Assembly (NCBI GenBank): GCA_963705895.1 | Contig: OY970122.1 | Coordinates: forward strand, 1,634,774 to 1,698,773 | Direction of reading: 5' to 3' | Source of the DNA: Candidatus Aminicenantes bacterium | Lineage (GTDB): Bacteria; Acidobacteriota; Aminicenantia; Aminicenantales; JAFGAV01 | DNA length: 64,000 nucleotides | Made by a program: the position numbers and the translations under genes | Part shown: positions 1,720-41,369 of the stretch, one piece after another | Numbering within the stretch: the stretch's first letter is position 1 | How the letters are laid out: every line of letters begins with the position of its first letter | The notes under the pieces: model-generated | The model's database searches: none | What the model was told of the DNA's origin: nothing | What the model saw: the letters and a program-made list of their open reading frames with translations, nothing else

Positions 1720-2721
1720 GTGAATTTTTCCATCGAGGGCCGGTCGAATCGTGTCCCCGATTTTCTGCTCGCCGGCGCGCCTCGCTGCGGGACCTCGACG
1801 CTCTATAGTTATTTGAGCCGCGCTGCCGGCATCTTCATGTCCAGGGAAAAAGAGCCCGAGTTCTTCCTAGCCTGGGACGAACAGCCCTATTATATAGATG
1901 ATAGGCGGCGCTATGCGGCAGACTACATATCCTACACTCGCGAAGATTATCTCAGGCTTTTCAAACCCGCCCGCCAGACCGACGTAATCGGAGAAGCTTC
2001 GTCTTGGTACCTTTATGGAGGGGAGAAGACGATCGCCAACATTCGCCGGCTCTATGGGCAACAAGCACGCCGGGTGAAGATCATCTTCATTCTGCGGAGC
2101 CCCGTAGAGCGGGCCTGGTCCCATTACTGGCTGAAAAGAAACCAGGGGGAAGAGCATCTGCCGTTCGCCGAGGCCATTCGACCCAAGGTCGTGCAGGATC
2201 GTATGGCCCGGCGCTGCTCCCTCGGGTTCGATTATCTGGGTCAGAGCCTCTACAGCCGCAATGTCGAAACATTTCTGGAGAGCTTCGACGCGGTCAAAGT
2301 CCTCCTGTTCGATGATTTTCGCCGGGACGCCGTCGAGACCTTGACCGGCCTGTTTGAATTTCTCGGGCTCAAGCCCCCTGTCCTATCTCCGAAAACGAAG
2401 CGCTTGAACACCAGCGGCGTCTCCCGCAGCCGAGCGGCCGAGGGCCTGTCGCGTCTGACCTTTCAACCTAATGCCCTAAAATCCCTGATCAAACATCTTA
2501 TCCCGCGCGCCCTCCGTTATAACCTGAAAAACCGTGTGGGCGCCCGCCTCTTCCAACAACCAATCCTTGTCGACTCACTGCGCCGCGAGCTTGCCGGTTT
2601 CTTCCGCGAGGATATCGTCCGCCTGGAGAGAGTTATCGGCCGTGACCTGGGCGTCTGGCTCAGCGAACCCTCTTCCCAGAACTGTCGTCTGCCGAGTCAG
2701 GCCGGGGAAGGCCAGTCATGA
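1720..2721 (+). CDS. Sulfotransferase family protein (PAPS-dependent)
   Basis: 5'-PSB-like P-loop (LLAGAPRCGTSTL) and 3'-PB-like motif (ILRSPVERAWSHYW). GTG start. Its stop overlaps the next gene's start (ATGA). Confidence 0.7.
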   Translation: MNFSIEGRSNRVPDFLLAGAPRCGTSTLYSYLSRAAGIFMSREKEPEFFLAWDEQPYYIDDRRRYAADYISYTREDYLRLFKPARQTDVIGEASSWYLYGGEKTIANIRRLYGQQARRVKIIFILRSPVERAWSHYWLKRNQGEEHLPFAEAIRPKVVQDRMARRCSLGFDYLGQSLYSRNVETFLESFDAVKVLLFDDFRRDAVETLTGLFEFLGLKPPVLSPKTKRLNTSGVSRSRAAEGLSRLTFQPNALKSLIKHLIPRALRYNLKNRVGARLFQQPILVDSLRRELAGFFREDIVRLERVIGRDLGVWLSEPSSQNCRLPSQAGEGQS

Positions 2722-3860
2722 ACGACTCGCGAACCCCGCCCGCCGCTGGGGTTCTTTCCTGGCATTTCGTGCTCCGAAACGCCTACAACATGCTGATCCG
2801 ACGCCAGTTCGACTTCACCTTTGACCGCATGCCGCTCCGGGCCGAACACCTTTCGCTCCGGAAAATCCTCAACCTCCTCAGGATCGGCTTCAACCGCATC
2901 TTTGATGTGGCGCCGGCGCTGGGCCATCCCTACATGGCCCATATCTCGCCCTCGGGACTCTGCGACTTGCGATGTGTCTTGTGTCCCGCGAACGATAAAA
3001 GGAACCGCGGCCGGAGCCTTCTTCCGCTGTCCACGTTCAAGAGGTTCATCGACGAGGCTGGAGACGATCTGCTCTACATCATTCTCTGGGGGTGGGGTGA
3101 GCCGCTCCTGAACCGCGATTTCGTCCGGATGTGCGCCTACGCCCGCGACCGAAACATTCTCACTGTAGCGAGCACGAACCTGAATCGGCTCACGCGCCAA
3201 ACGGCGGCCGACCTCGTCCGCTCCGGGCCCGACGCCCTGATCATTGCCCTGGACGGCCTGACCGACAAGACCTACAGCCGGCTTCGCCCCGGCGGGAGCG
3301 CTTCGCGGGTCATCGCTAATACCCGCCTCTTTGTCGAGGAAAGGGTCCGGGCGGACGCACGCCGGCCTTTCCTCAATCTGCGCATGGTCGTTTCGCGCGA
3401 GAACGAGGACGAAGTCGAGGCCTTCCGCCGTCTGGCTCGTGACCTGGGCGTCGACATGGTCAGCTTCAAGTCCTTCTCGACGCGCCAGCCGGGCTACGCC
3501 AACCCCGCCCATGATCGGGCATTCGCCTCCCGGGATGAACATTTCCGTTGGTACGATTATGGTCCCGGGTACGTGGCCGACCCACGGGCCGGCCGCTATG
3601 CCTGCAAGTTTCCCTGGACGAAGCCGACGCTTTTCCCCGACGGGGAGGTCCTCATCTGCGAGTTCGACCTCCGCTACGAACGCCCACTCGGCAACATCAA
3701 TCGGCAGAGCTTCGGAGATATCTGGTTCGGACCCGAGGCGAGGGCGGTGCGAAGGCGGTTCCACCGGGACCGGGCCGGGCTGGGCTTTTGCCGTGACTGT
3801 GTCTACGATTATAAAAAGATCCCCGGCTGTGTCGTCGATTGGGAAGTTTTTCGCCGATGA
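2718..3860 (+). CDS. Radical SAM enzyme with C-terminal SPASM/twitch-like Cys-rich domain
   Basis: CxxxCxxC motif (CDLRCVLCP) and a glycine-rich SAM motif (ILWGWGEPLL). C-terminal cysteine cluster (CKFPW...CEFD...CRDCVYDY). ATGA overlaps with both neighbours. Confidence 0.8.
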   Translation: MNDSRTPPAAGVLSWHFVLRNAYNMLIRRQFDFTFDRMPLRAEHLSLRKILNLLRIGFNRIFDVAPALGHPYMAHISPSGLCDLRCVLCPANDKRNRGRSLLPLSTFKRFIDEAGDDLLYIILWGWGEPLLNRDFVRMCAYARDRNILTVASTNLNRLTRQTAADLVRSGPDALIIALDGLTDKTYSRLRPGGSASRVIANTRLFVEERVRADARRPFLNLRMVVSRENEDEVEAFRRLARDLGVDMVSFKSFSTRQPGYANPAHDRAFASRDEHFRWYDYGPGYVADPRAGRYACKFPWTKPTLFPDGEVLICEFDLRYERPLGNINRQSFGDIWFGPEARAVRRRFHRDRAGLGFCRDCVYDYKKIPGCVVDWEVFRR

Positions 3861-4891
3861 AACAGGCAGTTCGTCAGGTCCAGCCCATCTCGGTCATCGT
3901 CATCACCTGCGATGAGCAACACAACATCCGAGGCTGCCTGGAATCACTCCTGGCCCAGGACTTTCCCAGGGACCGTTTTGAAGTCCTCGTCGTGGACTCC
4001 TCCTCGGACGCCACTCCGGAGATCGCCGCCTCCATCGATGGGGTTCGGGTCCTTCATTCGGCCAAGGGCATCAGCACGCAGAAGAACTTGGGGGTCGCCG
4101 AAGCCCGCTTCGACATTCTGGCCTTCACTGACGCCGATTGCATCATCCCCCCGGACTGGCTCCGTATTATCGAGCGGTCTTTCCGCCGCCCGGCACTGGC
4201 CGCGGCCGGCGGAAACGCCTACCCACCCCCGGGGACATCGAAGTTCGGGCTCTGGTCGTCCTGCGTCGGACACCCGGGCGGCGGGGCCATCGGCCTCGAC
4301 GCCAACGTGACGGAGGGAAAGGGTGGCATCGAGTTCGCCCCCGGCTGCAACGCCGTCTATCGCCGGATGGCGATTAAGGCCGTCCAAGGATTCAGCCCTG
4401 ATTTTCAGGACGGCGGTGAGGACGTTGACATCTCACGTCGGTTGAGGGCCAAGGGCTTTCTGATCGATTATATCCCCGACCTCACTATCTATCATAAGCC
4501 GCGGGCGACGCTGGGGTCCTACTTCCGTTGGAACATCGGCGTAGGAGTCACCAAATGGAACCTGTGGAGGCCAGGACCGGTCCGGATCGTCCTCAACCCC
4601 TTTTTCCCCGTCTGGTCCATTGTGCTCCTGGCGGGACTTTTCGCTTTGCCCCTGTTTCCCTGGCTGATGATTGGAGCACTGGCCGGACTGTGGGCAGTTT
4701 TTCTCTTCGGATTGGCCCTGGCGACCAAACCCTACCCGTTGCTCTGGAAGCGGCGCCGCAAGATCGGCGTTTCAATTCCAGCCGCCCTGACAATCGTTCC
4801 GGCGCTGATCTACGTCCGGCAGGTCGGCATCAGCCTGGGGGAATGGAAAAAATGGCGCGTCAGCCGCCTTTCGCGGCCAGCTCGGCAATAA
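3857..4891 (+). CDS. Family 2 glycosyltransferase with C-terminal transmembrane segments
   Basis: GT2 N-terminal signature (ISVIVITCDEQHNIRGCLESLLAQDF...FTDADC). Hydrophobic C-terminal helices. ATG at 3857 overlaps the rSAM stop. Confidence 0.75.
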   Translation: MKQAVRQVQPISVIVITCDEQHNIRGCLESLLAQDFPRDRFEVLVVDSSSDATPEIAASIDGVRVLHSAKGISTQKNLGVAEARFDILAFTDADCIIPPDWLRIIERSFRRPALAAAGGNAYPPPGTSKFGLWSSCVGHPGGGAIGLDANVTEGKGGIEFAPGCNAVYRRMAIKAVQGFSPDFQDGGEDVDISRRLRAKGFLIDYIPDLTIYHKPRATLGSYFRWNIGVGVTKWNLWRPGPVRIVLNPFFPVWSIVLLAGLFALPLFPWLMIGALAGLWAVFLFGLALATKPYPLLWKRRRKIGVSIPAALTIVPALIYVRQVGISLGEWKKWRVSRLSRPARQ

Positions 4892-5366
4892 TTGAACTCA
4901 AGTATTGAACCAGAGTCGAGGAGCCCGCAGTCCGGTCGTTCCGGGAGGGGCGAGGGATTCGTCCCGGAGGGGTTTGGAAGATCTTGTACAGGTCCTGGGC
5001 GTCATGGGCGACCCTGGCCCGTCCAATCTCTTCCAGCCGGGCGGCCAGCTCGACCTGATGATCGTCGACCTGCTCCTTGAACGCTGAGCGCCTCGGGACG
5101 ATAATAGGGATTTTCCGGGCGTTCAGGCTCATGAGAATCGAGCCCACGCCCGCGTGGCTGATGATCCTGTCAGATTCCCGGACGATCGTTTCCAGGCGTT
5201 CGGGCGGGAAGAAGGGCTGGCCGTCCATGTACCTCGATACATAGCGAGACGATCCTGTTTGGGCGAGTACGGGGCCGTGGATGATCCCCCGTCTGATCCC
5301 CTCGTCCACCATGGCCAGGAGCCGGTCGAAAGGGAAACGTTCTTGTCCGGTGAGAACGAGGATCAT
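4860..5366 (-). CDS. Alg13-like glycosyltransferase subunit (GT28 C-terminal domain; Cps14G/EpsF-like)
   Basis: MILVLTGQERFPFDRLL...ISHAGVGSI is typical of the Alg13/PssE family. Its start overlaps the Alg14-like stop (ATGA). Its 3' end is convergent with, and overlaps, the GT2 3' end. Confidence 0.7.
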   Translation of the reverse strand: MILVLTGQERFPFDRLLAMVDEGIRRGIIHGPVLAQTGSSRYVSRYMDGQPFFPPERLETIVRESDRIISHAGVGSILMSLNARKIPIIVPRRSAFKEQVDDHQVELAARLEEIGRARVAHDAQDLYKIFQTPPGRIPRPSRNDRTAGSSTLVQYLSSIIAELAAKGG

Positions 5367-5830
5367 CCGATACTCCCCCTAAACTCCGCCTTTCCATATT
5401 TTTTGGCCAAGTCGGGCCATTGGACCAAGAAACGCTTGACGAACGGATAGACGAGCTTCCCTGAAAGAGAGAGGTCGCGGATCCGGGTCAATGATTCGAT
5501 ATAGATCGAAGGGATGCCCAGAAGACATCCCGCATAGATGAACGAGACCGAGACGCCTGCCCCGGCGGAAACGATGAGACCGGGCCTCTCGCGGCGGAGG
5601 ACCTTAAAGGCCAGGACGAGGTTGCGCAGGAAGTTAGGGATGTTTCTGTTCGTCGGAGAGAAGGCCCAGACGACCGTTTCACCCTTCAGTGCAAACTCCG
5701 TATCCGGCGACCGGAAAGTGGCCCAGGTCCGGGTAAATTTCCTCCAAAGGGGGAAGAGCGCCATCATCTCAAAGAAATGCCCGCCGCTTGAGCAGACGAG
5801 GAGGAGTCTGAACTCAGGATTAGATTCCAT
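5363..5830 (-). CDS. Alg14-like oligosaccharide biosynthesis protein (Cps14F/PssD-like membrane anchor subunit)
   Basis: RLLLVCSSGGHFFEMMAL... matches the Alg14 family. The start was chosen at MESNPEF (ATG at 5830) rather than the upstream ORF start. Confidence 0.7.
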   Translation of the reverse strand: MESNPEFRLLLVCSSGGHFFEMMALFPLWRKFTRTWATFRSPDTEFALKGETVVWAFSPTNRNIPNFLRNLVLAFKVLRRERPGLIVSAGAGVSVSFIYAGCLLGIPSIYIESLTRIRDLSLSGKLVYPFVKRFLVQWPDLAKKYGKAEFRGSIG

Positions 5831-6150
5831 AACCCTATGGCGAGGCATACCCACCCTTTGAAAGCGGCGCCCTCCAAATCGTATGTGAAAAAATATAGCG
5901 CCGAGCTCTCAGTCTGTCAACAGGATTAGTTTAGGAAAGCGGGAGCCTGAGCGCAAATCGGAGGGCTCCCCGGCCCCCCCCCGGGCCAAAAACCGGCGAA
6001 AGTGAACGACGGTCAACAAGCTTTGGCCGGCTCAGCCTTGTATTTTTCGAGAACCATCGTCGGGCCAGCGCCCTCATGCTTCCTGCTCAGAGCTTGCCGA
6101 AATTTCGCTCCTTCCCAAATCTTGTTTTTTTCTGATTCGCCTTATTTTTA

Positions 6151-6180
6151 TTGACAAGGGCGCGGGCGGTGCGCTAAGCA
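6151..6180 (+). promoter_or_regulatory. Candidate sigma70-like promoter upstream of the aminotransferase gene
   Basis: TTGACA at 6151-6156, followed at ~17-18 nt by a weak -10 (TAAGCA). AGGAGAG RBS at 6215-6222. Confidence 0.25.
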
Positions 6181-6229
6181 TAGAGAGTGTATGCCTTCAT
6201 AAATTCCGCAATCATCAAGGAGAGACACC

Positions 6230-7318
6230 ATGGCCGGTTTTGAGGGAATCCAGTGGGCCCCGCGCCAGATGCGCTACACGCTCGTGGACAAACAGTTCGA
6301 GCTCACGGGGGTCGAGGACAAGGTCTTCGCCGTGTCGCGATCGATCCACTACGGAGCCTTCCTCGCCTTCGAGGGCATTCGCTTCTTCTGTAAAAAAACC
6401 GCCGACGGCCGGCCCGAGGTCATCTTCCTCAATTGGGACAAGAACCTGGAGCGGTTCCGGCGAGGGATCTCGTTTAACCTCGGGCGGAATCAGCAGGACC
6501 TCGTCCCCGAAGCCGAGGAGCTCGAGAACCTTTTCATCCGCCTCTACTTCGAGGACCCGGCCCTGAAGGCCTTCCTCCTGGAGATGGCCGGGCTGGAGGC
6601 CCAGGGCTACCTGCGCCCCTTTACCGTGGACGAGGAGCAATCGATCGGGGTCACATTCCCTGCCCAGCCCTCGATCCGGGCCGTCGTCTGCCGCTACGAC
6701 CGCTACCTGGGCGAGCCGTTTTGCGGAGTCGTCATCCCCCATGTCGTGCGGGCCCTGGGTGTCAACAAGACGGGTTGCTTGAAGCTCGGGGTCAATTACC
6801 TGATGAGCGTCAAGGCCGTGGACGAGGCCAAGAGGATCTCTCCCGATGCGGCTTCGGCCCTGTTCCTCGACGACAACACCTCGGCCCGGCTCGAGGACCG
6901 GCTCATCACCGAATGGGACTCCTCCTGCTGTCTGTTCGGCTTCCGCGACGGGACGGTGGTCAAGATCCCGGAGAGCAATCTGATCCTGCCCTCGGTCACG
7001 ATCCGGGGCATCGTGACCATTCTCAACAGCATGGGGGTCAAGACCGAGGAGCGGCATCTGTCCTACGGCGAGCTCGTGAAGCGGGCCACGGCCGGCGAGC
7101 TGGTGGCCGCCTGCAGTGTGGGCACGGCCGGCATCCTCAACCGCTGTGCCAAGCTCGTCCTGGTGAATGAGTCCGGCGGGGCGGCCTTCACCCATCATCC
7201 CGACAAAAGCCATGAGCTTTATCGCCTTCTCGGACAAGCCCGCGCCCGGTACTGGGACATTTACAAGGAAAAGGTTCTGGCCCCGGCAGGACTGAGGCTT
7301 TTCAAATACGGGCTGTAA
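6230..7318 (+). CDS. Branched-chain amino acid aminotransferase-like (PLP fold type IV)
   Basis: Motifs align with IlvE-type BCAT (SRSIHYGAFLAFEGIRFF vs HALHYGTSVFEGIR; KLGVNYLMSVKA; SVGTAGIL). Good RBS. Confidence 0.7.
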   Translation: MAGFEGIQWAPRQMRYTLVDKQFELTGVEDKVFAVSRSIHYGAFLAFEGIRFFCKKTADGRPEVIFLNWDKNLERFRRGISFNLGRNQQDLVPEAEELENLFIRLYFEDPALKAFLLEMAGLEAQGYLRPFTVDEEQSIGVTFPAQPSIRAVVCRYDRYLGEPFCGVVIPHVVRALGVNKTGCLKLGVNYLMSVKAVDEAKRISPDAASALFLDDNTSARLEDRLITEWDSSCCLFGFRDGTVVKIPESNLILPSVTIRGIVTILNSMGVKTEERHLSYGELVKRATAGELVAACSVGTAGILNRCAKLVLVNESGGAAFTHHPDKSHELYRLLGQARARYWDIYKEKVLAPAGLRLFKYGL

Positions 7319-10598: not shown

Positions 10599-10648
10599 TG
10601 GTGGAGCTGACCAGGATCGAACTGGCGACCTCTTGAATGCTAATCAAG
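10599..10648 (-). repeat. Partial 3' copy of tRNA-Ala (anticodon stem to CCA, 2 mismatches); att-like direct repeat
   Basis: tggtggagctgaccaggatcgaactggcgacctcttgaatgc... is identical to the 3' portion of the intact tRNA-Ala at 29297-29372. It diverges 5' of the anticodon stem. Confidence 0.8.
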
Positions 10649-11021
10649 CAGGCCCAGCAGAAAAGGAATTTCTGGCGACCTCCTCTTTCTCGAAGCCTTC
10701 GGGAACGTCTGCCGGCTTGAAGCGAAGCGTGAGGGTCGCCGGCCTTAGGAATTTCAGGCCGTCAGGCCTCAGCTTGTAGGTCGGCCCGATGACCGGACCT
10801 TCGCCAGAAGCCAACTCCTCGATGGTGATGCTGGTGTCCTTTTCCAAAGCGCCGGGTAGGATGGTGAGGGTCATGGCTCCGGAAGGCGATGTAACCGTGC
10901 CGCCTTGAGCGGCGGAAACCCGCTTAGTGATCATATTCACGCCGGGCGCGGCGCCGACCGCCGCCAGCTGGAAGCACATAAGTCCGACGAGAATTCCCAG
11001 GGAAGTGCGGTGGAGCATCAA
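10644..11021 (-). CDS. Truncated paralog of the secreted protein at 11142-12371 (signal peptide plus shared N-domain only)
   Basis: Signal peptide, then ~100 aa at ~65% identity to the N-domain of the neighbouring 409-aa protein. The ORF stops exactly at the tRNA-fragment repeat. Confidence 0.5.
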   Translation of the reverse strand: MMLHRTSLGILVGLMCFQLAAVGAAPGVNMITKRVSAAQGGTVTSPSGAMTLTILPGALEKDTSITIEELASGEGPVIGPTYKLRPDGLKFLRPATLTLRFKPADVPEGFEKEEVARNSFSAGPA

Positions 11022-11141: not shown

Positions 11142-12371
11142 TTACCCTTCGATCCGGAACGCCTTAGCCATGCAGTGTCCCGGCTCGGTCGCTCCAGTCC
11201 AGCGCACTTCGCCTCCGCTGGGAGGGCAATGGCCATACTCACTCTTGGGTAGGCCACACACTACGGTATCCAGAAAGATGAAGACAGCATAAAACCGGCC
11301 TGCTTGCCACTCGCCCTGGTCGAACCATACCGTAAAAGTGCCCGGTTTATAAGGGAAGCCGGCCATCTCTTTCATCGCCTTAGGGTTGGGAAATGGGTCA
11401 TCATGGAAGTACAGGCTGGCGTGTCCGGGCAAGACGATCAATCTGGAGTTAGGATCCTGTACGGGTAAGTAAGCTCTTCCGCCAGGCTGGCCGCTGAAAT
11501 CTATGAAGGATACACCCATGACGATTGAATAGTTGTTGGCGGATAGCACAGCGTCATGGTCGATACCGATAATGAGCTGGCCGCGACTGGTGGACCGCTC
11601 TCCTTTTTTGCCGGCTTTCACTCGGAAAAATTTCCCAAAACAAATGGTGGCGACTCCACTGCCTGAGACACCCATCTTAGCCCCGACCTTCTCGTAAAAC
11701 TGGCCGCCCGTTTTGACCGAGGCCTGCACTTCCGCGTAACCGGAGCCATTCGACTTCGCGGCTTTTATCAAGTAGTCGTAGGCGCGGATAATTTCAGCCT
11801 TCCCGCTGCCCAGGGTGTAGGAGGAGTAGGCGCGGGCCGAGTAGCGGGAAAAATGCTCGATCCGGGCTGAGACAGTGCCGGCGGCAAGGTTCACCTCGCT
11901 ATCAAGGAAATTGAGGCCGGTGGTCGCGAGCGGGTTGATCCCGGGGGCGCCAGTGGCGGTCTGAGGGCCCCTCGCGGCGCCCTGGGACCGTGTGGCCAGG
12001 TCTTGAGGCTTCTCTTCGGTGATGGCGATGTCTTCTCTCTCGAAGCCTTGAGGAATGTCCGCCGGCTTGAAGCGCAGAGTGAGCGTCGCCGGCTTTTTGA
12101 ATTTCAGGCCGTTCGGCCCGAGCTCGTAAGCCGGCCCGACGACCGAACCTTCGCCCGGGGCAAGCTCATCGATGGTGATGACGGTGTCCTTTTCCAGCCC
12201 GCCAGGCGGAATGGAAAGAGTCAAGCTGCCGGACGGAGAGGTGATCGTGCCGCCTTTCGCAGCGGAAACCTGCGCCGTACTAGTTTTCGCACCGGCCTCT
12301 ACGCCGATCGCCACAATATTAAGGCACAACACTCCGATGAGCGCTCTCCAAGAAAAGCGGTGAAGCCTCAT
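11142..12371 (-). CDS. Secreted hypothetical protein (N-terminal beta-rich domain plus ~280-aa C-terminal domain of unknown function)
   Basis: Signal peptide MRLHRFSWRALIGVLCLNIVAIGVEA. Not repetitive. No family recognised. Confidence 0.55.
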   Translation of the reverse strand: MRLHRFSWRALIGVLCLNIVAIGVEAGAKTSTAQVSAAKGGTITSPSGSLTLSIPPGGLEKDTVITIDELAPGEGSVVGPAYELGPNGLKFKKPATLTLRFKPADIPQGFEREDIAITEEKPQDLATRSQGAARGPQTATGAPGINPLATTGLNFLDSEVNLAAGTVSARIEHFSRYSARAYSSYTLGSGKAEIIRAYDYLIKAAKSNGSGYAEVQASVKTGGQFYEKVGAKMGVSGSGVATICFGKFFRVKAGKKGERSTSRGQLIIGIDHDAVLSANNYSIVMGVSFIDFSGQPGGRAYLPVQDPNSRLIVLPGHASLYFHDDPFPNPKAMKEMAGFPYKPGTFTVWFDQGEWQAGRFYAVFIFLDTVVCGLPKSEYGHCPPSGGEVRWTGATEPGHCMAKAFRIEG

Positions 12372-14362: not shown

Positions 14363-14770
14363 TCACCTATGCTTTGCTCTATATTGTTCAACGGGGCCGG
14401 AGGAGAACTTAATTACTTTCCTGATCAATAGGCGCTTCTCGTATTGATTTAAATGGCCAAAGGAGCCTCCTGATTCCATTTCTCCCTCGATCTGAACCCA
14501 TACTGCAAGGGTCACCTTGTTTAGCTTGATCATCTTTTTATTAATCGCCTCCTCATTTATGTCCGGTCCATAGTCGACCCAGCAAAACTCCTTCTTGTCC
14601 AAATCGCTTTTGAAGACCCTGCTCTCAAGTCCTGGCTGAATGAGGATAAATCCCTCATATTGCTGATTTCTCTGCTGACTGACCTGCCCCATCGCACTGC
14701 CTCCGACCCAAAACGTACCAACCGTTGCCAACAGGCATCCTGCAATCCTTAGTCTCGACCAATTTGTCAC
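14363..14770 (-). CDS. Small secreted hypothetical protein (GTG start) hidden inside the long kinase ORF
   Basis: RBS GAGGGAG 6 nt upstream of GTG at 14770. The product begins (M)TNWSRLRIAGCLLATVGTFWVGGSAMGQ, a signal peptide. The region is lower in GC than the kinase body and its codon usage differs. Confidence 0.45.
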   Translation of the reverse strand: MTNWSRLRIAGCLLATVGTFWVGGSAMGQVSQQRNQQYEGFILIQPGLESRVFKSDLDKKEFCWVDYGPDINEEAINKKMIKLNKVTLAVWVQIEGEMESGGSFGHLNQYEKRLLIRKVIKFSSGPVEQYRAKHR

Positions 14771-16312
14771 CAATTGCTCCCTCTCTGCTGATCTACTTAC
14801 AAAGCATCTGGGCTTGCCGCCCAGCAGCGCAGTCGCGACTCCCGACGATTCGAACCCACGTCCCTCCTGACAACAACCTTTGACATGTCCGTCACGAGCG
14901 CCGTTCGCGCCACTCCCAAAGATCCGCGGGCGAGCATGGGCAAATGATCCAGAGATATTGCGCGGGAGGGCTCGGACTCGATGGCAACGGCTCGACGGCA
15001 TAAGCCAGAACATCGCCACTGCGACCAATGGCCGCCCCGGCGGGACTGTCACGACTTCAACCAGTCCTGTTTTGGACAGTCCCTCGGTAATCCAGTCAGA
15101 GGCAATTCGGCCGATGGGGTCAAGGGATTTGTCCCCCGTCTGGTTCTCAAAAGAGGAAACGATGATCCGTTTTGGGTCGTAGCGAGGGCCGTGGCTCTTG
15201 AGGAGAAAGAACAAGCCTGAGGCGACGGCCAATAATGCGACCGCGGCAGGAACAAAGAGTTTTTTCAGTCGAAATTTTGCCGTAATTTCTCGCGAGGTAA
15301 GGGGCTTTCTCTCAGGAACGACGCGCTCCGTGGTGGGAAGGCCTTTTTCGATGCGGTCGAGGTCGGCGATAAGCGCTTCGGCGCTCTGGTATCTCTTGGC
15401 CTTGTCTTTTTCTAGACATTTTAAAATCAACCGGTCGAGGTCGAACGGGATCTGAGCATTAGTCGCTCTGGGATCTTTCGGCGTCTCGCTCTTGTGCTTG
15501 ACGCCGACCGTGAAGGGTGTATCCCCCTCGAACGGAACACGGCCTGTCACCATCTCGTAGAGAATGACGCCCAGCGAATAGATATCCGACCGCTGGTCGA
15601 CGTCTTTCCCTTCGACCTGCTCTGGGCTCATATACTCGGGGGTACCGATCATTACCCCGGCGCCGGTGATTCCTTTGGCCTTGATGGAACGGGCGATGCC
15701 GAAATCCATTATCCGGGCGTTCCCGTCCTTGTCGATAATGATGTTGGACGGCTTCAAGTCCCGATGAACGACTCCCAGGCGATGGGCTTCCGCCAGCCCC
15801 GCGCAGGCTTCCTTGGCGATGGCCACGGCCGTGCCCACAGTCAGCTGCTTGGTCCGGTGGAGAAAGCTCCTCAGGTCCTCACCCGGGACGTATTCCATGG
15901 TGATGAAGTGGAGGCCCTGGTCCTCCATCAGCTCATACATTCGGCCGACGTTCCGGTGGCCAATCTTGCGAGCGACTTTCAGCTCGTTCTGGAAGCGCTC
16001 CAGGGTGCCTTTGTCCAGGGCAATCTCGGGCTTGATGAGCTTGAGGGCGACTTCCTCGTTGAGCTTCTTGTCCAAGGCCCGATAAACCTTGCCCATGCCC
16101 CCGTGGCCCAGCTCCTCGATGATTTGGTAGCGGCCGGCGAAGGTCGTGCCGCGGGTAAGCTCATCCGTGCCGGTCTCGAGCGTCCGGGTAAGGGATGCCC
16201 GGTCTTCAGGGCCTAGGGGATGGCCAGGGGCTGAAGCGTCCAGCTTGGTCCCGCACTTGCCGCAGAAGAACGTGTCGGATGGATTCTCAAAGCGGCATTG
16301 AGGGCATTTCAT
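14771..16312 (-). CDS. Ser/Thr protein kinase with N-terminal zinc ribbon and one TM; C-terminal sensor region degenerate (possible pseudogene)
   Basis: CPQCRFEN...CGKCG zinc ribbon. Hanks kinase motifs (VALK, HRDLKPSN, DFG, GTPEYMSPE). A TM helix. After ~40 aa of TolB-like sequence the translation becomes R/G/S/C-rich low-complexity, unlike paralog 16423-18936. Confidence 0.65.
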
Positions 16313-16422: not shown

Positions 16423-18936
16423 TCATTTCTCCAGGCCGACCCTGCGCAGCAGCGCAGCGAAACGCGGGTCGGAGCGTACCGGGTCAAAGGCGTGTGAAGG
16501 TTTCACGAACATCAAGAAAAATGGGTCGCGCTCGCGGACGGCTTTCTCCAGCCAGGCAAAAGTCCGGTCCTTCTCTCCAAGAGCCGAATAGATCCATGCG
16601 ATCCCCACCGGGGGCACATAATTCCCTTTGGAATACTCGATGAGATCGTCCAGTATCTTCTGCGCCTCTTCTCGTTTGCCCATAAACGCGTAGCAGCCCG
16701 CGAGAAAGGCACTTGGGCGCATGGGAATGGCTGTCAACTCCATGCTTCGATGATAATTCCTGACGGCTTCCTCATATTTGCCCATCGCTTCATAGGCCCA
16801 TCCCAGATACATGTAAGTCATCGCGTGAGTAGGGTCCACCTCGAGCGCCCTTTTCAGCTGCTCAACGGCCTCCCCATATCGACGCTCAAAATAAAGGAAA
16901 AGTCCCACATTGGCGCTGATCCGCGGCGACAGAGGGTCAAGGTCCCTGGCGATCTTGATCTCCCTCATAGCCTCCTCGAATCGGCCTTGCATGACCAAAT
17001 GGTACGCATAAAAGTGGCGGCCCGTCGCGTAGCTGGGATTGAGTTCAAGAGCTAGCTTTAATTCTTTCTCGGCACCGGCGAAATCCCATTCATAATCACC
17101 GATGACGCTCCCCAAACAGGCGTGAGCCTCAGCGAGGTTGCTGTCGATCTCCAATGCCCTCAATACTGCCGCCTTAGCTTGAGGAAACGCCTTTTCAGCT
17201 GGCCAGAAGCCGTTATTCCCGAGAATGTAATAGGCATCCCCTAGGCCTGCATAGGCCAGCGCATAATTCGGATCAACTTCAATCGCCTTCTTGTAGTATT
17301 CGACGGATCTTATAAGGTCTGCCTCCTCCCTCCTATTCCAAGCACTGAGGCCCTGCAAATAGAGTCTGTAAGCCTCGAGATTCTCGGTATAATTCTTGAC
17401 GAGAGGGGCGCCCTTCTCCCCAAGCAGCTTGATCTTTAGTTCAGTTACGATAGCTTTGGCGATGTCGTCTTGGATGGAGAACAAATCGGCCATTTTTCGG
17501 TTGTAGATCTCCGACCAGACTTGGCGGCCGTCTTGAACGTTGCTGATCCGTGCCGTGACCCGGAGATTATCCCCGGCGACCTGGACGCTGCCTTCAAGAA
17601 CGTTGTCCACGCCAAGCTTCCGGCCGATTTCATGGATGTCCTGGGTTTTCCCCTTGAAGAAAAAGGCCGATGTCCTGGCCGGAACCCAAAGTCCCTCGAT
17701 GTGGGTCAGGGCATCAATCAGCGTTTCCGACAGGCCATCGCAAAGGTATTCGTACTGCTTGGCCTGGCTCAAGTCCGCAAAGGGGAGAACGGCGATCGAA
17801 CGTCTCTGCGTCGGAGCGAGCGGAGCGTGTTTCTTCGGGATAAACAGCCAATATGCCACGGCGGCAAGGACGATGACGGCGACAATCAGGACCGGCGCCA
17901 TGAGCTTCTTTAGGCTGAATTTGACCGTAATCTCTCTCGAAGTTATCGGCTTCTGCTCAGGGATTACCCGCTCCGTTGTCGGGATGCCTTTTTCGATTTT
18001 CTCCAACTCGGAACGGACTTCGGCGGCGCTCTGGTATCGTTTGGTTTTGTCCTTTTCCAGGCACTTCAAAATAACGCCGCTGAGATCGTCTGGGATAAGA
18101 TGGTTCAGCTGCTTTGGATTTTTGGGGACTTCCCCCTTGTGCTTCATCGCGATGCTTAGGGCGGTCTCCCCTGTGAAGGGCACGTGGCTTGTCGCCATCT
18201 CATAAAGAATGACGCCCAGGGAATAGATATCAGAGAGATGGTCGACATCTTTGGCTTCGGCCTGCTCCGGGCTCATGTTCTCGGGCGTCCCGATCAACAC
18301 CCCCGCGCCCGTTAACCCCTTATCTTTGACCGACCGGGCAATCCCAAAATCCATGATCTTGGCATTCCCGTGCTTGTCGATCATGATGTTCTGGGGTTTC
18401 AGGTCGCGGTGGACGACGCCAAGACTGTGGGCTTCGGCCAGCCCATCACAGACCTGCTTCCCGACGCTCAGCAACATCCCTAGGCTCAGGCTCCCGGTCA
18501 TCTCGATCATGCTTTTCAGGTCTTCGCCATGGACGTATTCCATAGTGATGAAATGGGTCCCCTCCGCCTCGCCGATATCGAACATCTTGCAGACGTTCCG
18601 GTGTCCGATTCGGCGCGACAGCCGAATCTCATTGCTGAAACGTTCGATCGTCTCTTTATCGAAGGCGACCTCAGGCTTGATGAGCTTCAGGGCGACCTTC
18701 TCCTTGATCTTCGTGTCATAGACTTTGTATACCCGGCCCATGCCGCCATGTCCCAGCTCCTCGATGATTTGGTAGCGCCCAGCGAAGGTCGTGCCAGTGG
18801 TGAGTTCTTTGAGTGGCGTGTTTACAGTTTCGGTTCTGGAGTCAGGAATATCCCTGGAAGGAGGAAGGGGCGTGGCGCACCTGCCGCAATAATAGGTATC
18901 GGCAGGATTGTCAAAGTGGCACTTGGGGCATTCCAT
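16423..18936 (-). CDS. Ser/Thr protein kinase: zinc ribbon, kinase, TM, TolB-N-like periplasmic domain and TPR repeats
   Basis: CPKCHFDN...CGRC ribbon. Full Hanks motifs. A TM helix. A TolB/LpoB-like segment (IAVLPFADLS...). Multiple TPR-like repeats (AYAGLGDAYY, AEAHACLG...). Confidence 0.85.
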   Translation of the reverse strand: MECPKCHFDNPADTYYCGRCATPLPPSRDIPDSRTETVNTPLKELTTGTTFAGRYQIIEELGHGGMGRVYKVYDTKIKEKVALKLIKPEVAFDKETIERFSNEIRLSRRIGHRNVCKMFDIGEAEGTHFITMEYVHGEDLKSMIEMTGSLSLGMLLSVGKQVCDGLAEAHSLGVVHRDLKPQNIMIDKHGNAKIMDFGIARSVKDKGLTGAGVLIGTPENMSPEQAEAKDVDHLSDIYSLGVILYEMATSHVPFTGETALSIAMKHKGEVPKNPKQLNHLIPDDLSGVILKCLEKDKTKRYQSAAEVRSELEKIEKGIPTTERVIPEQKPITSREITVKFSLKKLMAPVLIVAVIVLAAVAYWLFIPKKHAPLAPTQRRSIAVLPFADLSQAKQYEYLCDGLSETLIDALTHIEGLWVPARTSAFFFKGKTQDIHEIGRKLGVDNVLEGSVQVAGDNLRVTARISNVQDGRQVWSEIYNRKMADLFSIQDDIAKAIVTELKIKLLGEKGAPLVKNYTENLEAYRLYLQGLSAWNRREEADLIRSVEYYKKAIEVDPNYALAYAGLGDAYYILGNNGFWPAEKAFPQAKAAVLRALEIDSNLAEAHACLGSVIGDYEWDFAGAEKELKLALELNPSYATGRHFYAYHLVMQGRFEEAMREIKIARDLDPLSPRISANVGLFLYFERRYGEAVEQLKRALEVDPTHAMTYMYLGWAYEAMGKYEEAVRNYHRSMELTAIPMRPSAFLAGCYAFMGKREEAQKILDDLIEYSKGNYVPPVGIAWIYSALGEKDRTFAWLEKAVRERDPFFLMFVKPSHAFDPVRSDPRFAALLRRVGLEK

Positions 18937-19288: not shown

Positions 19289-19388
19289 ATTCGTCCTCGG
19301 TCGGGAAGACGGGCCAGGCGGTAGGGATTCCGCTTTTCGGGGGCGACCCTAGGCCCGAATTTTATTTTCAAGCATAGGATCCAATTTA

Positions 19389-20600
19389 TTAATTTGCTCC
19401 ATGCTTTTTGAGCAACTCGGCCATTTCTTTGTGGCCGTTCATCAGAGCAATGCCCAGTGGACTTGTACCTCGTGGATCTACACCATCATAGCGCCTAGCG
19501 TTTATATCGGCTCCCATGCCGATTAGCAACTCGACCATCCCTATGCGGTTATTTGCAGCTGCGCCGTATAATGGAGTCGTGCCATACTTGTCTTTGTCGT
19601 TAATATTCGCGCCCCTGGCAGTTAATAGCGCAATCACATCTATGCTGCCGCCAGAGGCGGCCCAGTGCATGGCTGTATTGCCGGCAAAGCCCCTACAGTT
19701 AATATCTGCACCCTTCGCGATCAGCAGTTCGGCTATATCTTTTTGATTACGAAAGGCCGCTTCATGCAGAGGCGTCATCTCATTGTTATCCTTGGCGTTC
19801 ACATCTGCTCCCTTGCCGATAAGGAACTGCGCCACATCGTTGCGGCCTCCCACAATCGCCAAATGCAGCGGCGTGCACCTGGACTTATTTTTGGCGTCCA
19901 GTTCCGCCCCATTGGCAATTAGTAGCTCGGCACCTTTCCTGCTTCGACTGTGCAGAGGTGTCCAGTCATTGTTATCCTTGGCATTCACATCTGCACCCTT
20001 TCTTATTAGAAGCCCTACCACTTCATCGCTCGCAAAAACCGTCGCCCAATGCAGTGGCGTCCAACCCCAGTTATCCGCGCCGTTAATATCGGCTCCCCGG
20101 CGTATTAATACTTGGGCTATTTCCTTTGCCGCTTCTTGTGTGCTGTCGTTCGAGGGCTTAAAGCCTGACGTATTTCCTCGGGCCATTATTGACAAAACTT
20201 TGTCCCCGCTCCTATCATGAAGGAGTGTCCTCCCCTCCTTATCTTTGGCATTTAAATCCGCGCCCTTTTCAATCAATAACTCGACGATTTTTTCCTTGGC
20301 TTCCCTCGCTGCCTCGATGAGCGGCGTCCTGCCCCAACCGTCCTTTGCATTAATATCAGCCCCGGCGGCAATAAGTAGCTTTGCCATATCTAGATTGTTT
20401 TTCCGGGTGGCCAATTGCAGCGGCGTTTGCCCAACAGAATCTTTTGCGTTTACGTCCGCGCCTTTGGCGAGCAACATCTTGACCGCTTCTTCGTTCTCCT
20501 GGTGGATGGCCTCATGAAGTGGAGTAGGCCGAAGAATGTCTTCAAACGAAATCCTTTTGCGTCCTTTAAAGAAAGCCAGGAATCTTTTTAAGCCCATCAT
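19389..20600 (-). CDS. Ankyrin repeat protein (~11 ANK repeats)
   Basis: Repeated TPLHxAxxxxxxxxxxLLxxGADxNAKD units throughout. No signal peptide. Confidence 0.85.
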   Translation of the reverse strand: MMGLKRFLAFFKGRKRISFEDILRPTPLHEAIHQENEEAVKMLLAKGADVNAKDSVGQTPLQLATRKNNLDMAKLLIAAGADINAKDGWGRTPLIEAAREAKEKIVELLIEKGADLNAKDKEGRTLLHDRSGDKVLSIMARGNTSGFKPSNDSTQEAAKEIAQVLIRRGADINGADNWGWTPLHWATVFASDEVVGLLIRKGADVNAKDNNDWTPLHSRSRKGAELLIANGAELDAKNKSRCTPLHLAIVGGRNDVAQFLIGKGADVNAKDNNEMTPLHEAAFRNQKDIAELLIAKGADINCRGFAGNTAMHWAASGGSIDVIALLTARGANINDKDKYGTTPLYGAAANNRIGMVELLIGMGADINARRYDGVDPRGTSPLGIALMNGHKEMAELLKKHGAN

Positions 20601-20829
20601 ACTTTCCTAATCAAAGCGAACGTTTCATTCTTCGGATCTTTTATCATAATCAGTAATTTTATTTGATACTCCGATGACGGAGTTGTCAATGACCCGTGGA
20701 GGCCAATTCTAGTTTCTTGCCTAAACCTAGACCGAAATGAGGTGAAAATGAGCGAAGGTAGAGGATTGGTTAGAAATTGGGACCGAAGCGCATTTGCTTG
20801 GTCTATCGGGGTTTTCTTAGTAATTGAAT

Positions 20830-20877
20830 TGGTGGAGCTGACCAGGATCGAACTGGCGACCTCTTGAATGCCATTCA
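20830..20877 (-). repeat. Partial 3' copy of tRNA-Ala (48 nt, exact); att-like direct repeat adjacent to the integrase
   Basis: Identical to tRNA-Ala positions ~29-76. It diverges 5' of the anticodon loop. Confidence 0.85.
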
Positions 20878-20892
20878 CCTTGTTCATTTCGG

Positions 20893-21969
20893 TTAATTGT
20901 ATGCGGACGAGCGAGTTGCGGGAGTTTCCGCTTTCGGTTTATCGACCCGAATGACGGGATTTATGCCAGCATAGAGCGCCTCGAACTTCTCCATCCCGGC
21001 TTGCATATCCTCGAAGGTCTCATGGACATAGCGCATCGTCATCTCGGTCTTGGAGTGACCGAGGATCTTCTGGAGGGCCACGACGTCGTGCGTCGCCCGG
21101 TAGTACCAGGTGGCGAAGGTATGTCTCAGGTCATGGAAGCGCAGCCCTTTGATCTCCGCCCGCCGGCAAGCCGTATGGAATGAGGTCTTGACGTCCTTCA
21201 CGCCGAACACAAACGCATCCCGGCGAGGGATCGCCTTCAGGATCTCGACCACCACAGAATCCATCGGGACCTCTCTCGGTTTTTTACTCTTCGCCTCCGC
21301 GGCTAGGATGGTGATGAACCTTTCTCTAAACCTCACGTTCTCCCACCTCAGCCCCAGGACCTCGCCCTTCCTCATCCCGGTGTGCAGGGCGACAAGCAGG
21401 ATGGGTTTCAGGCTGGCGCTGGCGCACTCCACTAATCGTCCCCGCTCCCCGCTGGTAAGGATGCGCTCCGGTTTCGGTTCATCATCCTTCTCTATATCCG
21501 CGGTGGGGTCGTCGGTGATCTTCTTCCAGCGGAGAGCCTTCTGGCAGATCGCCCGCAAACAACTAAGCTCCCGGTTGACCGAGCATGGAGAGGCTTTTGT
21601 TGCTTTCCTAGCAGCCTGATACCTTTCCACAAACTCGGGCGTAATATCCTGAAGCGACTTCCCCTTGAGTGCCGGGACCAAGTGAACGCGGATCGAGTTC
21701 TCATAGCTCGCCATCGTGTTGGGGCGGATCTTTCCCTTCTCTGCGAGGAGTTTGAGGTAGTCCTCGGCGAAGTCCTCAAACAGGACCGGCTTCATGGCCG
21801 GCGCAGGGTTCTCAAAAATGCCGTGCTTTTCTTTTTTAAGATGTTCGAGCTTCTCATACATCGCCCGCTCTGTGTCCGCCCTGGAAAGCCCGGTGATGAC
21901 CCGATAGCGACGATAATCGAAGGTTAAGTCATAGAACCATTGGCCTTTATCGTTTTTGCTGACTTTCAT
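20893..21969 (-). CDS. Tyrosine recombinase / phage integrase
   Basis: C-terminal catalytic motifs (HDLRHTFAT...LGHSKTEMTMRYVH) and an N-terminal SAM-like domain. ATG at 21969 overlaps the stop of the upstream small ORF. Confidence 0.85.
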   Translation of the reverse strand: MKVSKNDKGQWFYDLTFDYRRYRVITGLSRADTERAMYEKLEHLKKEKHGIFENPAPAMKPVLFEDFAEDYLKLLAEKGKIRPNTMASYENSIRVHLVPALKGKSLQDITPEFVERYQAARKATKASPCSVNRELSCLRAICQKALRWKKITDDPTADIEKDDEPKPERILTSGERGRLVECASASLKPILLVALHTGMRKGEVLGLRWENVRFRERFITILAAEAKSKKPREVPMDSVVVEILKAIPRRDAFVFGVKDVKTSFHTACRRAEIKGLRFHDLRHTFATWYYRATHDVVALQKILGHSKTEMTMRYVHETFEDMQAGMEKFEALYAGINPVIRVDKPKAETPATRSSAYN

Positions 21970-22441: not shown

Positions 22442-22524
22442 AGGATACTAATATATTCTTTTATAGGCTGATGTCAAGGAAATTCTTTTCTTTTCTTGCT
22501 ATCCCTGGGCGATAGTGGTAGGCT

Positions 22525-22746: not shown

Positions 22747-22790
22747 GACGGGCTTTCAGGCGCAGCCGGGGCCGATGGGACGCGGGTTTT

Positions 22791-22979: not shown

Positions 22980-22981
22980 TT

Positions 22982-23383: not shown

Positions 23384-23388
23384 TGTTT

Positions 23389-27889: not shown

Positions 27890-27910
27890 CTTGCGCCTTG
27901 ATTTTCTTCG

Positions 27911-29296: not shown

Positions 29297-29372
<76 letters not shown>

Positions 29373-41361: not shown

Positions 41362-41369
41362 GCCGGACC

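Follow-up and report, generated by a model that had tools for sequence, protein, structure and literature searches.

Five genes lie together in the 64-kb stretch of DNA that was analysed (the window), three on the plus strand and two facing them on the minus strand. The plus-strand genes encode a PAPS-type carbohydrate sulfotransferase (1720..2721; 333 aa from a GTG start), a radical SAM (rSAM) enzyme with one predicted twitch-like auxiliary cluster (2718..3860; 380 aa) and a membrane-anchored GT2 glycosyltransferase (3857..4891; 344 aa from its ATG). The minus-strand genes encode the two halves of a bipartite glycosyltransferase, an Alg14-like (PssD-like) membrane-docking half (5363..5854; 163 aa), for which the database gene call begins at the ATG at 5848, and an Alg13-like (PssE-like) catalytic half (4860..5366; 168 aa). 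Successive genes of the trio share an ATGA, at 2718-2721, where the sulfotransferase stop overlaps the rSAM start, and at 3857-3860, where the rSAM stop overlaps the GT2 start; TCAT at 5363-5366, which reads ATGA on the minus strand, joins the Alg14 stop to the Alg13 start. The five reading frames and the three four-base overlaps, reported in a preliminary description of this DNA, were confirmed in place from the ORF list and the sequence, and Pfam and NCBIfam profiles bear out the identities given to all five products. From the overlaps, stoichiometric co-expression of sulfotransferase, rSAM and GT2 may be inferred. Four-base overlaps by themselves are commonplace in compact bacterial operons. 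The GT2 and Alg13-like genes converge and overlap by 32 bp at their 3' ends (4860..4891), and a scan for terminator-like sites between them found none. On the minus strand, ahead of the Alg14/Alg13 pair, the sequence at 5892..5920 (TTGACA-17-TATATT, 11/12 matches) is a sigma-70-like promoter match, to consensus only.

What raises this cassette above chance is that the gene set is kept across many genomes with unrelated flanks. The same five genes occur at about 25 of about 31 informative loci whose rSAM is 46-78% identical to that of the window, the relatives being almost all metagenome-assembled genomes with uncertain taxonomy labels; the arrangement is thus conserved and not unique. In the commonest order the genes run sulfotransferase-Alg14-Alg13-rSAM-GT2 on a single strand, and the Alg14/13 pair is inverted in the window and in one relative (L060). 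The convergence of trio and pair that had been described is therefore present here, but as a derived state, an inversion that one subclade shares; the ancestral and still usual layout is a five-gene same-strand chain. At some orthologous loci either the sulfotransferase or the Alg13/14 pair is missing (L004, L014, L031, L033 and L059), and the order of the pathway is therefore not fixed by the data. A Wzx flippase is the sixth commonest neighbour gene (15 loci), and Wzy_C adjoins the cassette at three loci (L002, L017 and L021); genes of the Wzx or Wzy_C type are adjacent at about half of the related loci. At five loci a flavodoxin gene lies directly 3' of GT2, flavodoxins being the usual reductant class for rSAM clusters. 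ORF scans of the 64-kb window revealed no gene for a priming phosphoglycosyl transferase, a flippase, a ligase or PAPS synthesis. The cassette, conserved among uncultured bacteria of the Aminicenantes type, most likely makes a sulfated sugar chain of the cell surface with the help of an uncharacterised, oxygen-independent radical enzyme.

The sulfotransferase matches Sulfotransfer_1 (Pfam; 27.6 bits, cutoff 22) and carries the 5'-phosphosulfate and 3'-phosphate binding motifs of a PAPS-dependent enzyme, xxRxGT(S/T) and LRxPxxRaWShy being conserved in 24 orthologues, with their cores RxGT(S/T) and RxPxxRxWS at 90% or more. Among solved structures its closest relative is 3rnl ('Sulfotransferase', E 2.5e-41); heparan sulfate 3-O-sulfotransferases come next, with weak matches. 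The Alg14-like half matches Pfam Alg14 at 78.9 bits and PssD/Cps14F at 118.3 bits, above the NCBIfam cutoff of 110, whereas the Alg13-like half (Glyco_tran_28_C in Pfam), in which the HaGvG and E.VDdHQ motifs are conserved, has PssE/Cps14G as its top NCBIfam match at 92.7 bits, below the cutoff of 120. A comparable two-gene split into translationally coupled docking and catalytic halves is found in PssD/PssE, Cps14F/Cps14G and eukaryotic Alg14/Alg13. Known members of the PssD/PssE type belong to EPS or capsule clusters of the Wzy type that have a priming transferase close by, and we know of none that is linked to an rSAM enzyme or a sulfotransferase.

The GT2 matches Glycos_transf_2 at 92.4 bits, along with Glyco_tranf_2_3 and Glyco_trans_2_3 (Pfam), and has three C-terminal hydrophobic segments (~244-266, 268-291 and 302-321). 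The closest fold to its AF2 model (pLDDT 91) is PcManGT (6yv7), a Pyrobaculum membrane GT2 of archaeal N-glycan assembly that is 21% identical to it; BcsA and hyaluronan synthases come next. As in PcManGT and minimal cellulose-synthase-like GT2s, a GT-A domain is followed by interface and transmembrane helices. The top NCBIfam match of the GT2 is the mycofactocin glycosyltransferase MftF, yet at 124 bits against a cutoff of 280. A mycofactocin system was rejected on this score and on that of the rSAM with MftC (65 against 265 bits); other mycofactocin genes are absent, a scan of ORFs of the cassette and its surroundings having turned up nothing that resembles MftA, B, D or E.

The rSAM matches Radical_SAM (63.3 bits) and SPASM (PF13186; 46.3 bits, cutoff 21.5) in Pfam; the PF13186 model also takes in twitch-type proteins, and a match to it does not equate to two auxiliary clusters. 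Seven cysteines are invariant in all 71 family members: C82, C86 and C89 of the CxxxCxxC motif that holds the radical SAM cluster (2961..2984), and C296, C314, C358 and C361 of a twitch-like domain (3603..3830) with the pattern C296-x17-C314-x43-C358-x2-C361. The orthologues have five cysteines C-terminal of residue 250, of which only these last four are invariant; the fifth, C371, likewise within 3603..3830, is a feature of the orthologue clade, most close paralogues having Gly at that position. A full two-cluster SPASM enzyme was rejected, the seven-cysteine SPASM motif being absent and the cysteine set that of a single-cluster, twitch-like protein. The label SPASM-type, applied earlier, thus holds as a Pfam match and fails as a description of the clusters: CxxxCxxC with one four-cysteine auxiliary set in a truncated SPASM domain, of beta-hairpin and helix, is the sequence signature of a twitch-type enzyme. 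Consistent with this, residues 295-364 match NCBIfam N_Twi_rSAM (1.8e-08), though short of the cutoff; the top NCBIfam matches are metalloenzyme and heme-pathway rSAMs, every one far below its own cutoff. By its cysteine pattern, the rSAM is classed as a BtrN-like enzyme with a single predicted auxiliary cluster and not as a two-cluster SPASM maturase.

BtrN, the butirosin 2-deoxy-scyllo-inosamine dehydrogenase and archetypal twitch-domain rSAM, is the top solved-structure match of the family profile (7.8e-16). Both enzymes have a CxxxCxxC cluster and a single auxiliary set, and the four auxiliary cysteines, at 169, 187, 232 and 235 of the BtrN chain, align one-to-one at near-identical spacing; BtrN and the AF2 model of the rSAM (pLDDT 89) are ~14% identical. 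BtrN oxidises a sugar-like alcohol by two electrons and without oxygen, and its four-Cys auxiliary cluster probably accepts the electrons (PMC9012708); a carbohydrate-like alcohol substrate and oxygen-independent chemistry may, by analogy, be expected of the present enzyme. Unlike it, BtrN has ~250 aa and no N-terminal extension, lacks Cys371, and acts on a free aminocyclitol of an antibiotic pathway, with no glycosyltransferase as partner or fused domain. In rSAM sugar epimerases a cysteine gives the hydrogen atom back, a role that Cys371 could by analogy fill. Such enzymes include NeoN, an rSAM epimerase (PMC10991966), which with HygY and SpeY belongs to the aminoglycoside-pathway epimerases and dehydrogenases; these twitch-type proteins abstract a hydrogen from a sugar carbon, but they serve secondary-metabolite pathways with soluble pseudo-oligosaccharides, and the likeness to the rSAM drawn here is one of type and not of sequence-level membership. 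In fold comparison, SpeY, DesII and BlsE are among the matches, as are anSME, SkfB and PqqE, and the peptide maturases CteB and SuiB rank level with the sugar enzymes in Foldseek, all at TM ~0.5. Any substrate and reaction proposed for the rSAM thus come from analogy at 14-20% identity, and no literature on its reaction was found.

An N-terminal extension of about 70 residues had been reported for the rSAM. It is real, the first motif cysteine being residue 82, and the extension of ~70-80 aa is kept throughout the family. In the AF2 model the extension (residues 1-75; 2718..2942) consists of a helix (15-28), a beta-hairpin (31-42) and a second helix (47-62), with both helices amphipathic and basic; F17, N21, F33, F35, D36, P39, K49, N52, N59, R60, G69 and P71 are invariant or nearly so. 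As read from the model of the whole enzyme, it appears shorter than a winged-helix RRE, with its elements in another order. In proteins in which rSAM and GT2 are fused, the GT2 domain abuts the extension, which marks the exact fusion junction.

Such fusions bear on the closest partnership within the cassette. The rSAM and GT2 genes overlap or adjoin at every locus with enough sequence, and they do so also in paralogues just 29-36% identical, where arrays of several rSAM-GT2 pairs occur with Wzx. One locus has a single-ORF GT2::rSAM fusion (L037:5154-7193), and eight of ten long relatives tested, drawn from a search of 1.84 billion proteins, are single chains in which this rSAM module is joined to between one and three GT2 domains. 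One of these sits in an O-antigen-like cluster whose other genes include GT4, GT9, an ABC exporter of the Wzm/Wzt type and a priming phosphoglycosyl transferase. Because rSAM and GT2 stay together in distant paralogues and are also found fused, the tightest predicted functional link is that between rSAM and GT2 and not that between sulfotransferase and rSAM; the pair is, as judged from gene order, the ancient core of the cassette.

Roles in protein or peptide maturation must be weighed against this partnership. The rSAM could be an anaerobic sulfatase-maturating enzyme (anSME-like), a maturase of the GT2 itself, which would suit the strict 1:1 pairing, or a RiPP enzyme for a glycosylated, sulfated peptide; the Pfam SPASM match and the folds of CteB, SuiB, anSME, SkfB and PqqE are compatible with any of these. 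An anSME resembles the rSAM in its C-terminal Fe-S domain and a thematic link to sulfate esters, and its two-electron oxidation is related to that of BtrN, but it has two auxiliary clusters, a seven-to-eight-Cys motif and a sulfatase protein as substrate. The rSAM has four invariant auxiliary cysteines, enough with the fifth C-terminal one to bind a single auxiliary cluster only, and the anSME class was rejected. Profile classification placed the enzyme outside it: anSMEcpe is not matched by the family profile at E<=0.01, in contrast to BtrN, and no anSME model is among the best 25 NCBIfam matches. A sulfatase nearby, which together with an anSME assignment would have spoken against a novel reaction, was sought among the 38 ORFs of the window with Pfam and not found. 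At orthologous loci sulfatases lie near the cassette in only two or three of ~35, with a partial, weak match in L013. In L059 a Cys-type sulfatase immediately precedes the sulfotransferase gene and in L003 (the same as L009) one lies ~6 kb away, which would suit an anSME. The peptide option, raised earlier together with a search of the flanks for a precursor, fared no better: clustering of ORFs of 15-110 aa within 800 bp on each side of the cassette at 28 loci yielded no conserved small ORF, those that are shared belonging to one closely related subclade through similarity of the flanking DNA, and the ~50-residue helix-hairpin-helix of the extension does not, in the model, look like a typical or recognisable peptide-recognition domain. 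With glycan genes as neighbours throughout, a RiPP enzyme is disfavoured, and maturation of any kind is very unlikely.

As first suggested, the best reading remains that a sugar of a sulfated glycoconjugate undergoes radical modification. On balance, it is somewhat probable that the five genes form a self-contained module which assembles a short sulfated glycan for the cell envelope, on a membrane lipid that serves as carrier and on the cytoplasmic side of the inner membrane, and that in this module a BtrN-like rSAM oxidises the sugar that GT2 handles or converts it to an epimer. From the behaviour of its family, the Alg14/Alg13-type (PssD/PssE-like) glycosyltransferase would extend a lipid-linked primer whose synthesis is encoded elsewhere in the genome, and the membrane-anchored, cellulose-synthase-like GT2 would, from its fold, add a further sugar. 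The rSAM, whose conserved adjacency and gene fusions mark it as the dedicated partner of GT2, probably docks to it via the conserved N-terminal extension and, by analogy, would abstract a hydrogen atom from the sugar that GT2 handles. Two outcomes can be envisaged from known chemistry: if an electron passes to the single auxiliary [4Fe-4S] cluster a keto-sugar would result, as in the oxygen-independent dehydrogenation of BtrN, whereas if a hydrogen atom is returned from the clade-specific Cys371 the product would be an epimer. The sulfotransferase, with its conserved PAPS-binding motifs, would then sulfate the product, and a Wzx flippase would export the unit, which in some genomes a Wzy_C-type ligase or polymerase would attach; both of the latter functions are absent from the window.

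Two other pathways would retain a sugar or glycolipid as substrate. In one, rather unlikely, the rSAM modifies a nucleotide-sugar donor in solution, ahead of transfer, and provides an unusual donor, keto, deoxy or epimerised, that is accepted by its partner GT2 alone, with the rest of the cassette working as above. DesII and BlsE, sugar-acting rSAMs whose substrates are nucleotide-linked, are among the nine solved-structure profile matches and the top fold matches; one rSAM per GT2 in the paralogue arrays fits a donor equally well, and many fused GT2 domains apparently have no membrane segments, because the rSAM module begins right after the ~220-residue GT-A domain. The 1:1 fusion, the basic amphipathic N-terminal element and the membrane anchor of the GT2 are nevertheless easier to reconcile with an rSAM that works on a membrane-bound product. 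In the other, which seems improbable, the cassette makes a membrane glycolipid in place of an exported glycan, and the rSAM remodels either its head group, by a ring contraction such as that proposed for the calditol synthase Cds and the hopanoid enzyme HpnJ, or its lipid, by the kind of C-C coupling carried out by GDGT-MAS, the tetraether synthase of archaea. For action of an rSAM on a lipid-linked sugar there is precedent in Cds and HpnJ (PMC13459092). GT2 has weak matches to Glyco_transf_21 (the ceramide glucosyltransferase family) and the hopanoid glycosyltransferase HpnI, and half of the orthologous loci are without an adjacent flippase. GDGT-MAS is the second solved-structure match of the rSAM (1e-08), but the match covers the generic SAM-binding core and not the extra domains. 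Moreover, enzymes of the Alg14/13 type are known for polyprenyl-diphosphate-linked acceptors, and the Wzx, Wzy_C, Bac_transf and Wzm/Wzt neighbours at related loci point to exported glycans.

To our knowledge, the characterised sugar-acting rSAM enzymes all come from antibiotic or nucleoside natural-product pathways, and we know of no rSAM that is a routine part of cell-envelope glycan assembly. In a broad profile search the family has thousands of representatives, with members beside or fused to GT2 in polysaccharide clusters of anaerobes, among them Aminicenantes, anammox Brocadia, Chloroflexota, Omnitrophota and Desulfobacterota-type metagenome-assembled genomes. A bolder proposal, offered tentatively and at low confidence, is that a large uncharacterised clade of single-auxiliary-cluster rSAMs are obligate partners of GT2s, often fused to them, and carry out oxygen-independent radical epimerisation or oxidation in growing cell-surface glycans; the Cys371 enzyme and the sulfotransferase might then give a sulfated, epimerised (glycosaminoglycan-like) repeat, and the Gly paralogues might be dehydrogenases. 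The small size of the five-gene cassette suits it to heterologous reconstruction and makes the proposed pathway directly testable. If true, the pathway would be a new route to bacterial surface-glycan diversity without oxygen or NAD-dependent epimerases, would add one more to the rare bacterial systems of glycan sulfation, and would give access to the surface chemistry of a major uncultured lineage of sediments.

The five genes that the preliminary description had named are present in the window, and their names match the Pfam and NCBIfam assignments. A six-frame ORF list and the sequence itself place on the plus strand a sulfotransferase (1720-2721, 333 aa), a radical SAM (rSAM) protein (2718-3860, 380 aa) and a GT2 glycosyltransferase (3857-4891, 344 aa), and on the minus strand an Alg14-like protein (5363-5854, 163 aa) and an Alg13-like protein (4860-5366, 168 aa). 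The ATGA overlaps reported for the trio were read in the sequence (2718-2721, 3857-3860), as was their minus-strand counterpart at 5363-5366. The GT2 and Alg13-like genes converge with a 32-bp overlap of their 3' ends (4860-4891), and no terminator-like site was found between them in the scan. Upstream of the Alg14-like gene, positions 5920-5892 give a strong consensus match (11/12) to a sigma-70-like promoter, and Rfam detected no RNA element inside or adjoining the cassette. The neighbours are a CDF metal transporter on one side and unrelated metabolic genes on the other, and the source annotations checked for four proteins name neither the rSAM, the GT2, the sulfotransferase nor this transporter.

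Homologues of the rSAM number about 187 in a 5.8-billion-protein collection and come mostly from Aminicenantes or Acidobacteriota-type metagenome-assembled genomes. Gene neighbourhoods, taken from precomputed gene calls and 50 species-representative genome loci, were compared by tblastn and all-against-all clustering. Of about 31 orthologous loci with sufficient flanks (rSAM 46-78% identical), about 25 hold the complete set of five, and the arrangement is not unique to the window. Whereas the gene set is kept, the convergent layout of trio and pair is derived: the usual order, nearly always on a single strand, is sulfotransferase-Alg14-Alg13-rSAM-GT2, with stops and starts that overlap or abut. 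The inversion of the Alg14/13 pair, which leaves the sulfotransferase coupled to the rSAM via a new ATGA overlap, is found again in locus L060 (rSAM 66% identical), marking it as the arrangement of one subclade. Because the flanking genes differ between genomes, the cassette is a mobile, self-contained five-gene module. The next commonest neighbour is a Wzx-type flippase (Polysacc_synt; 15 loci), beside which a Wzy_C-domain protein is encoded in L002, L017 and L021. The sulfotransferase is missing in L004, L014 and L033, the Alg13/14 pair in L059 and both in L031; the rSAM and GT2 genes were never separated in the loci compared. Five loci of one subclade carry a flavodoxin gene immediately after the GT2 (L011:10482-10988, with equivalents in L014, L024, L025 and L030), plausibly a dedicated reductant for the rSAM.

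Key evidence on the rSAM comes from its cysteines. Besides the CxxxCxxC motif (C82, C86, C89), exactly four are invariant, both among 22 family members and among 71 members from all loci: C296-x17-C314-x43-C358-x2-C361. A fifth, C371, belongs to the orthologue clade; most of the closest paralogues have Gly in its place. With five cysteines in all in the C-terminal third of the orthologous proteins, the two auxiliary clusters of a true SPASM enzyme are impossible. The SPASM-type assignment made earlier thus gives way to a single auxiliary set, which lines up with cysteines 169, 187, 232 and 235 of the BtrN chain. BtrN is also the first match of the family profile among all PDB sequences (7.8e-16), the others being GDGT-MAS, BlsE, SuiB, DesII and PqqE. 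It is a twitch-domain enzyme that subjects 2-deoxy-scyllo-inosamine to a two-electron oxidation, with its four-Cys auxiliary cluster as presumed electron acceptor (PMC9012708). NCBIfam returned matches to 32 rSAM families, those listed all falling far under cutoff (best 82 vs 380). An AlphaFold2 model (pLDDT 89) gave only generic SPASM/twitch matches in a Foldseek comparison with the PDB (TM ~0.5), which do not discriminate substrate class. The N-terminal extension before CxxxCxxC, noted previously, measures about 75 residues and is conserved in the family alignment; it is modelled as a helix (15-28), a hairpin (31-42) and a second helix (47-62), both helices being amphipathic and basic.

There is a close relationship between the rSAM and the GT2 well beyond the orthologues. 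Distant paralogues (29-36% identical) from Brocadia, Chloroflexota, Omnitrophota and Desulfobacterota-type genomes retain a GT2 gene directly downstream. Such rSAM-GT2 pairs often stand several to an array, accompanied by Wzx, a GT87-like membrane protein, an FAD amine-oxidase-like protein and Gfo/Idh/MocA oxidoreductases. One such array, L043 of Candidatus Brocadia pituitae (AP021856.1, 2634017-2651096), interleaves six rSAM paralogues with six GT2 genes over ~17 kb and also holds a Wzx flippase. Like arrays occur in L048 and L046, and similar ones in Chloroflexota (L040, L041, L047), Omnitrophota (L044) and a deltaproteobacterial MAG (L045). The published work on the Kuenenia S-layer O-glycan makes no mention of radical SAM genes or rSAM/GT2 arrays.

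The two functions are also joined in single polypeptides. When the family profile was run with HMMER against 1.84 billion representative proteins, 3,931 matched at E<=1e-30, and among the top 150 at least 15 far exceed 400 aa in length. Of ten long relatives searched with Pfam, eight join the rSAM/twitch module to between one and three GT2 domains, with either part first, and another joins it to a GT1-type domain. L037:5154-7193 is one unbroken ORF encoding a GT2 and then this rSAM module. The fusion proteins comprise P0259, P0263, P0266, P0269, P0272, P0276, P0290 and P0304 from the profile search, with L037:5154-7193 and L061:10001-12619; the rSAM/twitch-GT2 fusions reach 1,511 aa. Five of the eight GT2-bearing fusions carry one or two cupin domains, whose weak matches, to generic metal cupins only, gave no clue to keto-sugar isomerase chemistry. 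In the fusions the GT2 domain abuts the profile segment equivalent to the N-terminal extension, which suggests that in unfused proteins the extension docks the rSAM onto its partner GT2. The locus around one fusion gene is O-antigen-like, with genes for a Wzm/Wzt-type ABC exporter, a Bac_transf priming transferase, a PMT_2 protein, GT4 and GT9. In light of recurrent fusion, invariant adjacency and glycan-gene context, functional partnership with a glycosyltransferase is the best-supported fact about the rSAM family.

The remaining cassette products are of recognizable kinds. The modelled GT2 (pLDDT 91) most closely resembles PcManGT, which serves archaeal N-glycan assembly as a membrane GT2, and after it the cellulose and hyaluronan synthases. 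Its GT-A domain shows an invariant DAD motif together with GGED and RW-type motifs, and the protein has three C-terminal hydrophobic segments. The Alg14-like half exceeds the curated PssD/Cps14F cutoff (118 vs 110, NCBIfam), and the best match of the Alg13-like half, PssE, is under its cutoff. The sulfotransferase has a homologue of solved structure in the bacterial sulfotransferase 3rnl (2.5e-41), is weakly related to heparan sulfate 3-O-sulfotransferases and retains conserved PAPS-binding motifs.

Several other roles for the rSAM were weighed. Membership of the anSME class, raised in the preliminary description together with a nearby sulfatase, is not supported: there is one auxiliary four-Cys set, anSMEcpe is not among the PDB profile matches at E<=0.01, and a sulfatase lies near the cassette only in L059, L003 and, weakly, L013. 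The 38 window ORFs scanned with Pfam include no sulfatase, nor any PAPS-synthesis gene, priming transferase, flippase or ligase. In L059 a secreted sulfatase with a CAPSR (Cys-type) motif (5185-6705) is directly upstream of the cassette sulfotransferase and may reflect turnover of a sulfated product; in L003 another (17248-18795) lies ~6 kb downstream. The peptide or glycopeptide option entertained earlier is not supported, since the flanks of 28 cassettes hold no conserved small ORF for a precursor peptide and the N-terminal element, as modelled, seems unlike a peptide-recognition domain. A mycofactocin-like system was likewise rejected: the best NCBIfam match of the GT2 is the mycofactocin glycosyltransferase MftF (124 vs 280), the MftC and MftF matches are both far under cutoff, and the ORFs scanned in and around the cassette include no other mft genes. 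The rSAM may instead perform glycolipid head-group or lipid-tail chemistry, for which Cds, HpnJ and GDGT-MAS are precedents (PMC13459092), although this is a poorer fit to the neighbouring genes. If it acts on a sugar, the substrate may be the nucleotide-sugar donor or, alternatively, the lipid-linked product.

Elsewhere in the window, what looks like a prophage remnant or integrated mobile element occupies 19295-29372, a stretch of lower GC (~0.52 vs ~0.60). A tRNA (29300-29372) and two int-alpA RNA matches (19295-19359, 29075-29141) edge it, and encoded within are an AAA_25 ATPase (26606-27889), an ankyrin protein with eight repeats (19389-20600), a tyrosine integrase (20893-21981) and, as a weak match, a large-terminase-like ORF (24305-25747). 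Seven paralogous genes (63-73% identical; minus strand 35338-36492 and 36745-37902, plus strand 52312-53484, 54746-55891, 56135-57292, 57536-58693 and 59140-60411) lie in low-GC regions adjoining an IS481-type transposase (53714-54646). Their ~385-aa products have a signal-like hydrophobic N-terminus and are built of the repeat unit LHSFAGG..DG..P.GSLILKGSTLYGMT..GG..GTIFKINTNGTGF; the five copies scanned had no Pfam match. An apparent bacillithiol biosynthesis operon (40240-43751, minus) comprises a BshA-like GT4 (40240-41385), a BshB-like PIG-L deacetylase (41370-42128) and BshC (42135-43751), followed by a second PIG-L-domain protein of 839 aa (43869-46388). Two adjacent paralogues (10644-11021 and 11142-12371, minus) have hydrophobic, signal-like N-termini and are 60% identical over an N-terminal region of ~116 residues; the longer gave a weak ZU5-domain match. 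Three Ser/Thr protein kinases (14363-16312, 16423-18936 and 47106-49580, minus) have no relation to the cassette; two of them carry TPR repeats at the C-terminus, and two have zinc-ribbons at the N-terminus.

The observed gene set and its conservation, the cluster-binding cysteines and the GT2 partnership frame a model of cassette action. Going by family knowledge, the Alg14/13-type enzyme would elongate a lipid-diphosphate-linked primer, the GT2, working at the membrane interface, would transfer a sugar, the sulfotransferase would use PAPS in the cytoplasm, and the finished unit would be flipped by Wzx. By analogy with BtrN and the aminoglycoside rSAM epimerases, the rSAM would remove hydrogen from a sugar carbon, which might then become a ketone, the auxiliary cluster serving as electron sink, or be inverted through hydrogen return from Cys371. 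This general model, a glycan-assembling cassette with a sugar-acting rSAM, is somewhat favoured; any one particular rSAM reaction would be far less likely.

The rSAM, the GT2 and the rSAM-GT2 fusions all fall outside the curated family models, and literature searches on twitch/BtrN and SPASM enzymes, Aminicenantes and anammox S-layer glycosylation found no description of the cassette or the fusions. Each component is of a known kind, and the novelty is their combination. It is of interest to radical SAM enzymology and microbial glycobiology alike: a twitch-type, probably sugar-acting rSAM is here a standing, often fused, GT2 partner in envelope glycan clusters, to which this cassette adds a sulfotransferase in a compact five-gene module.
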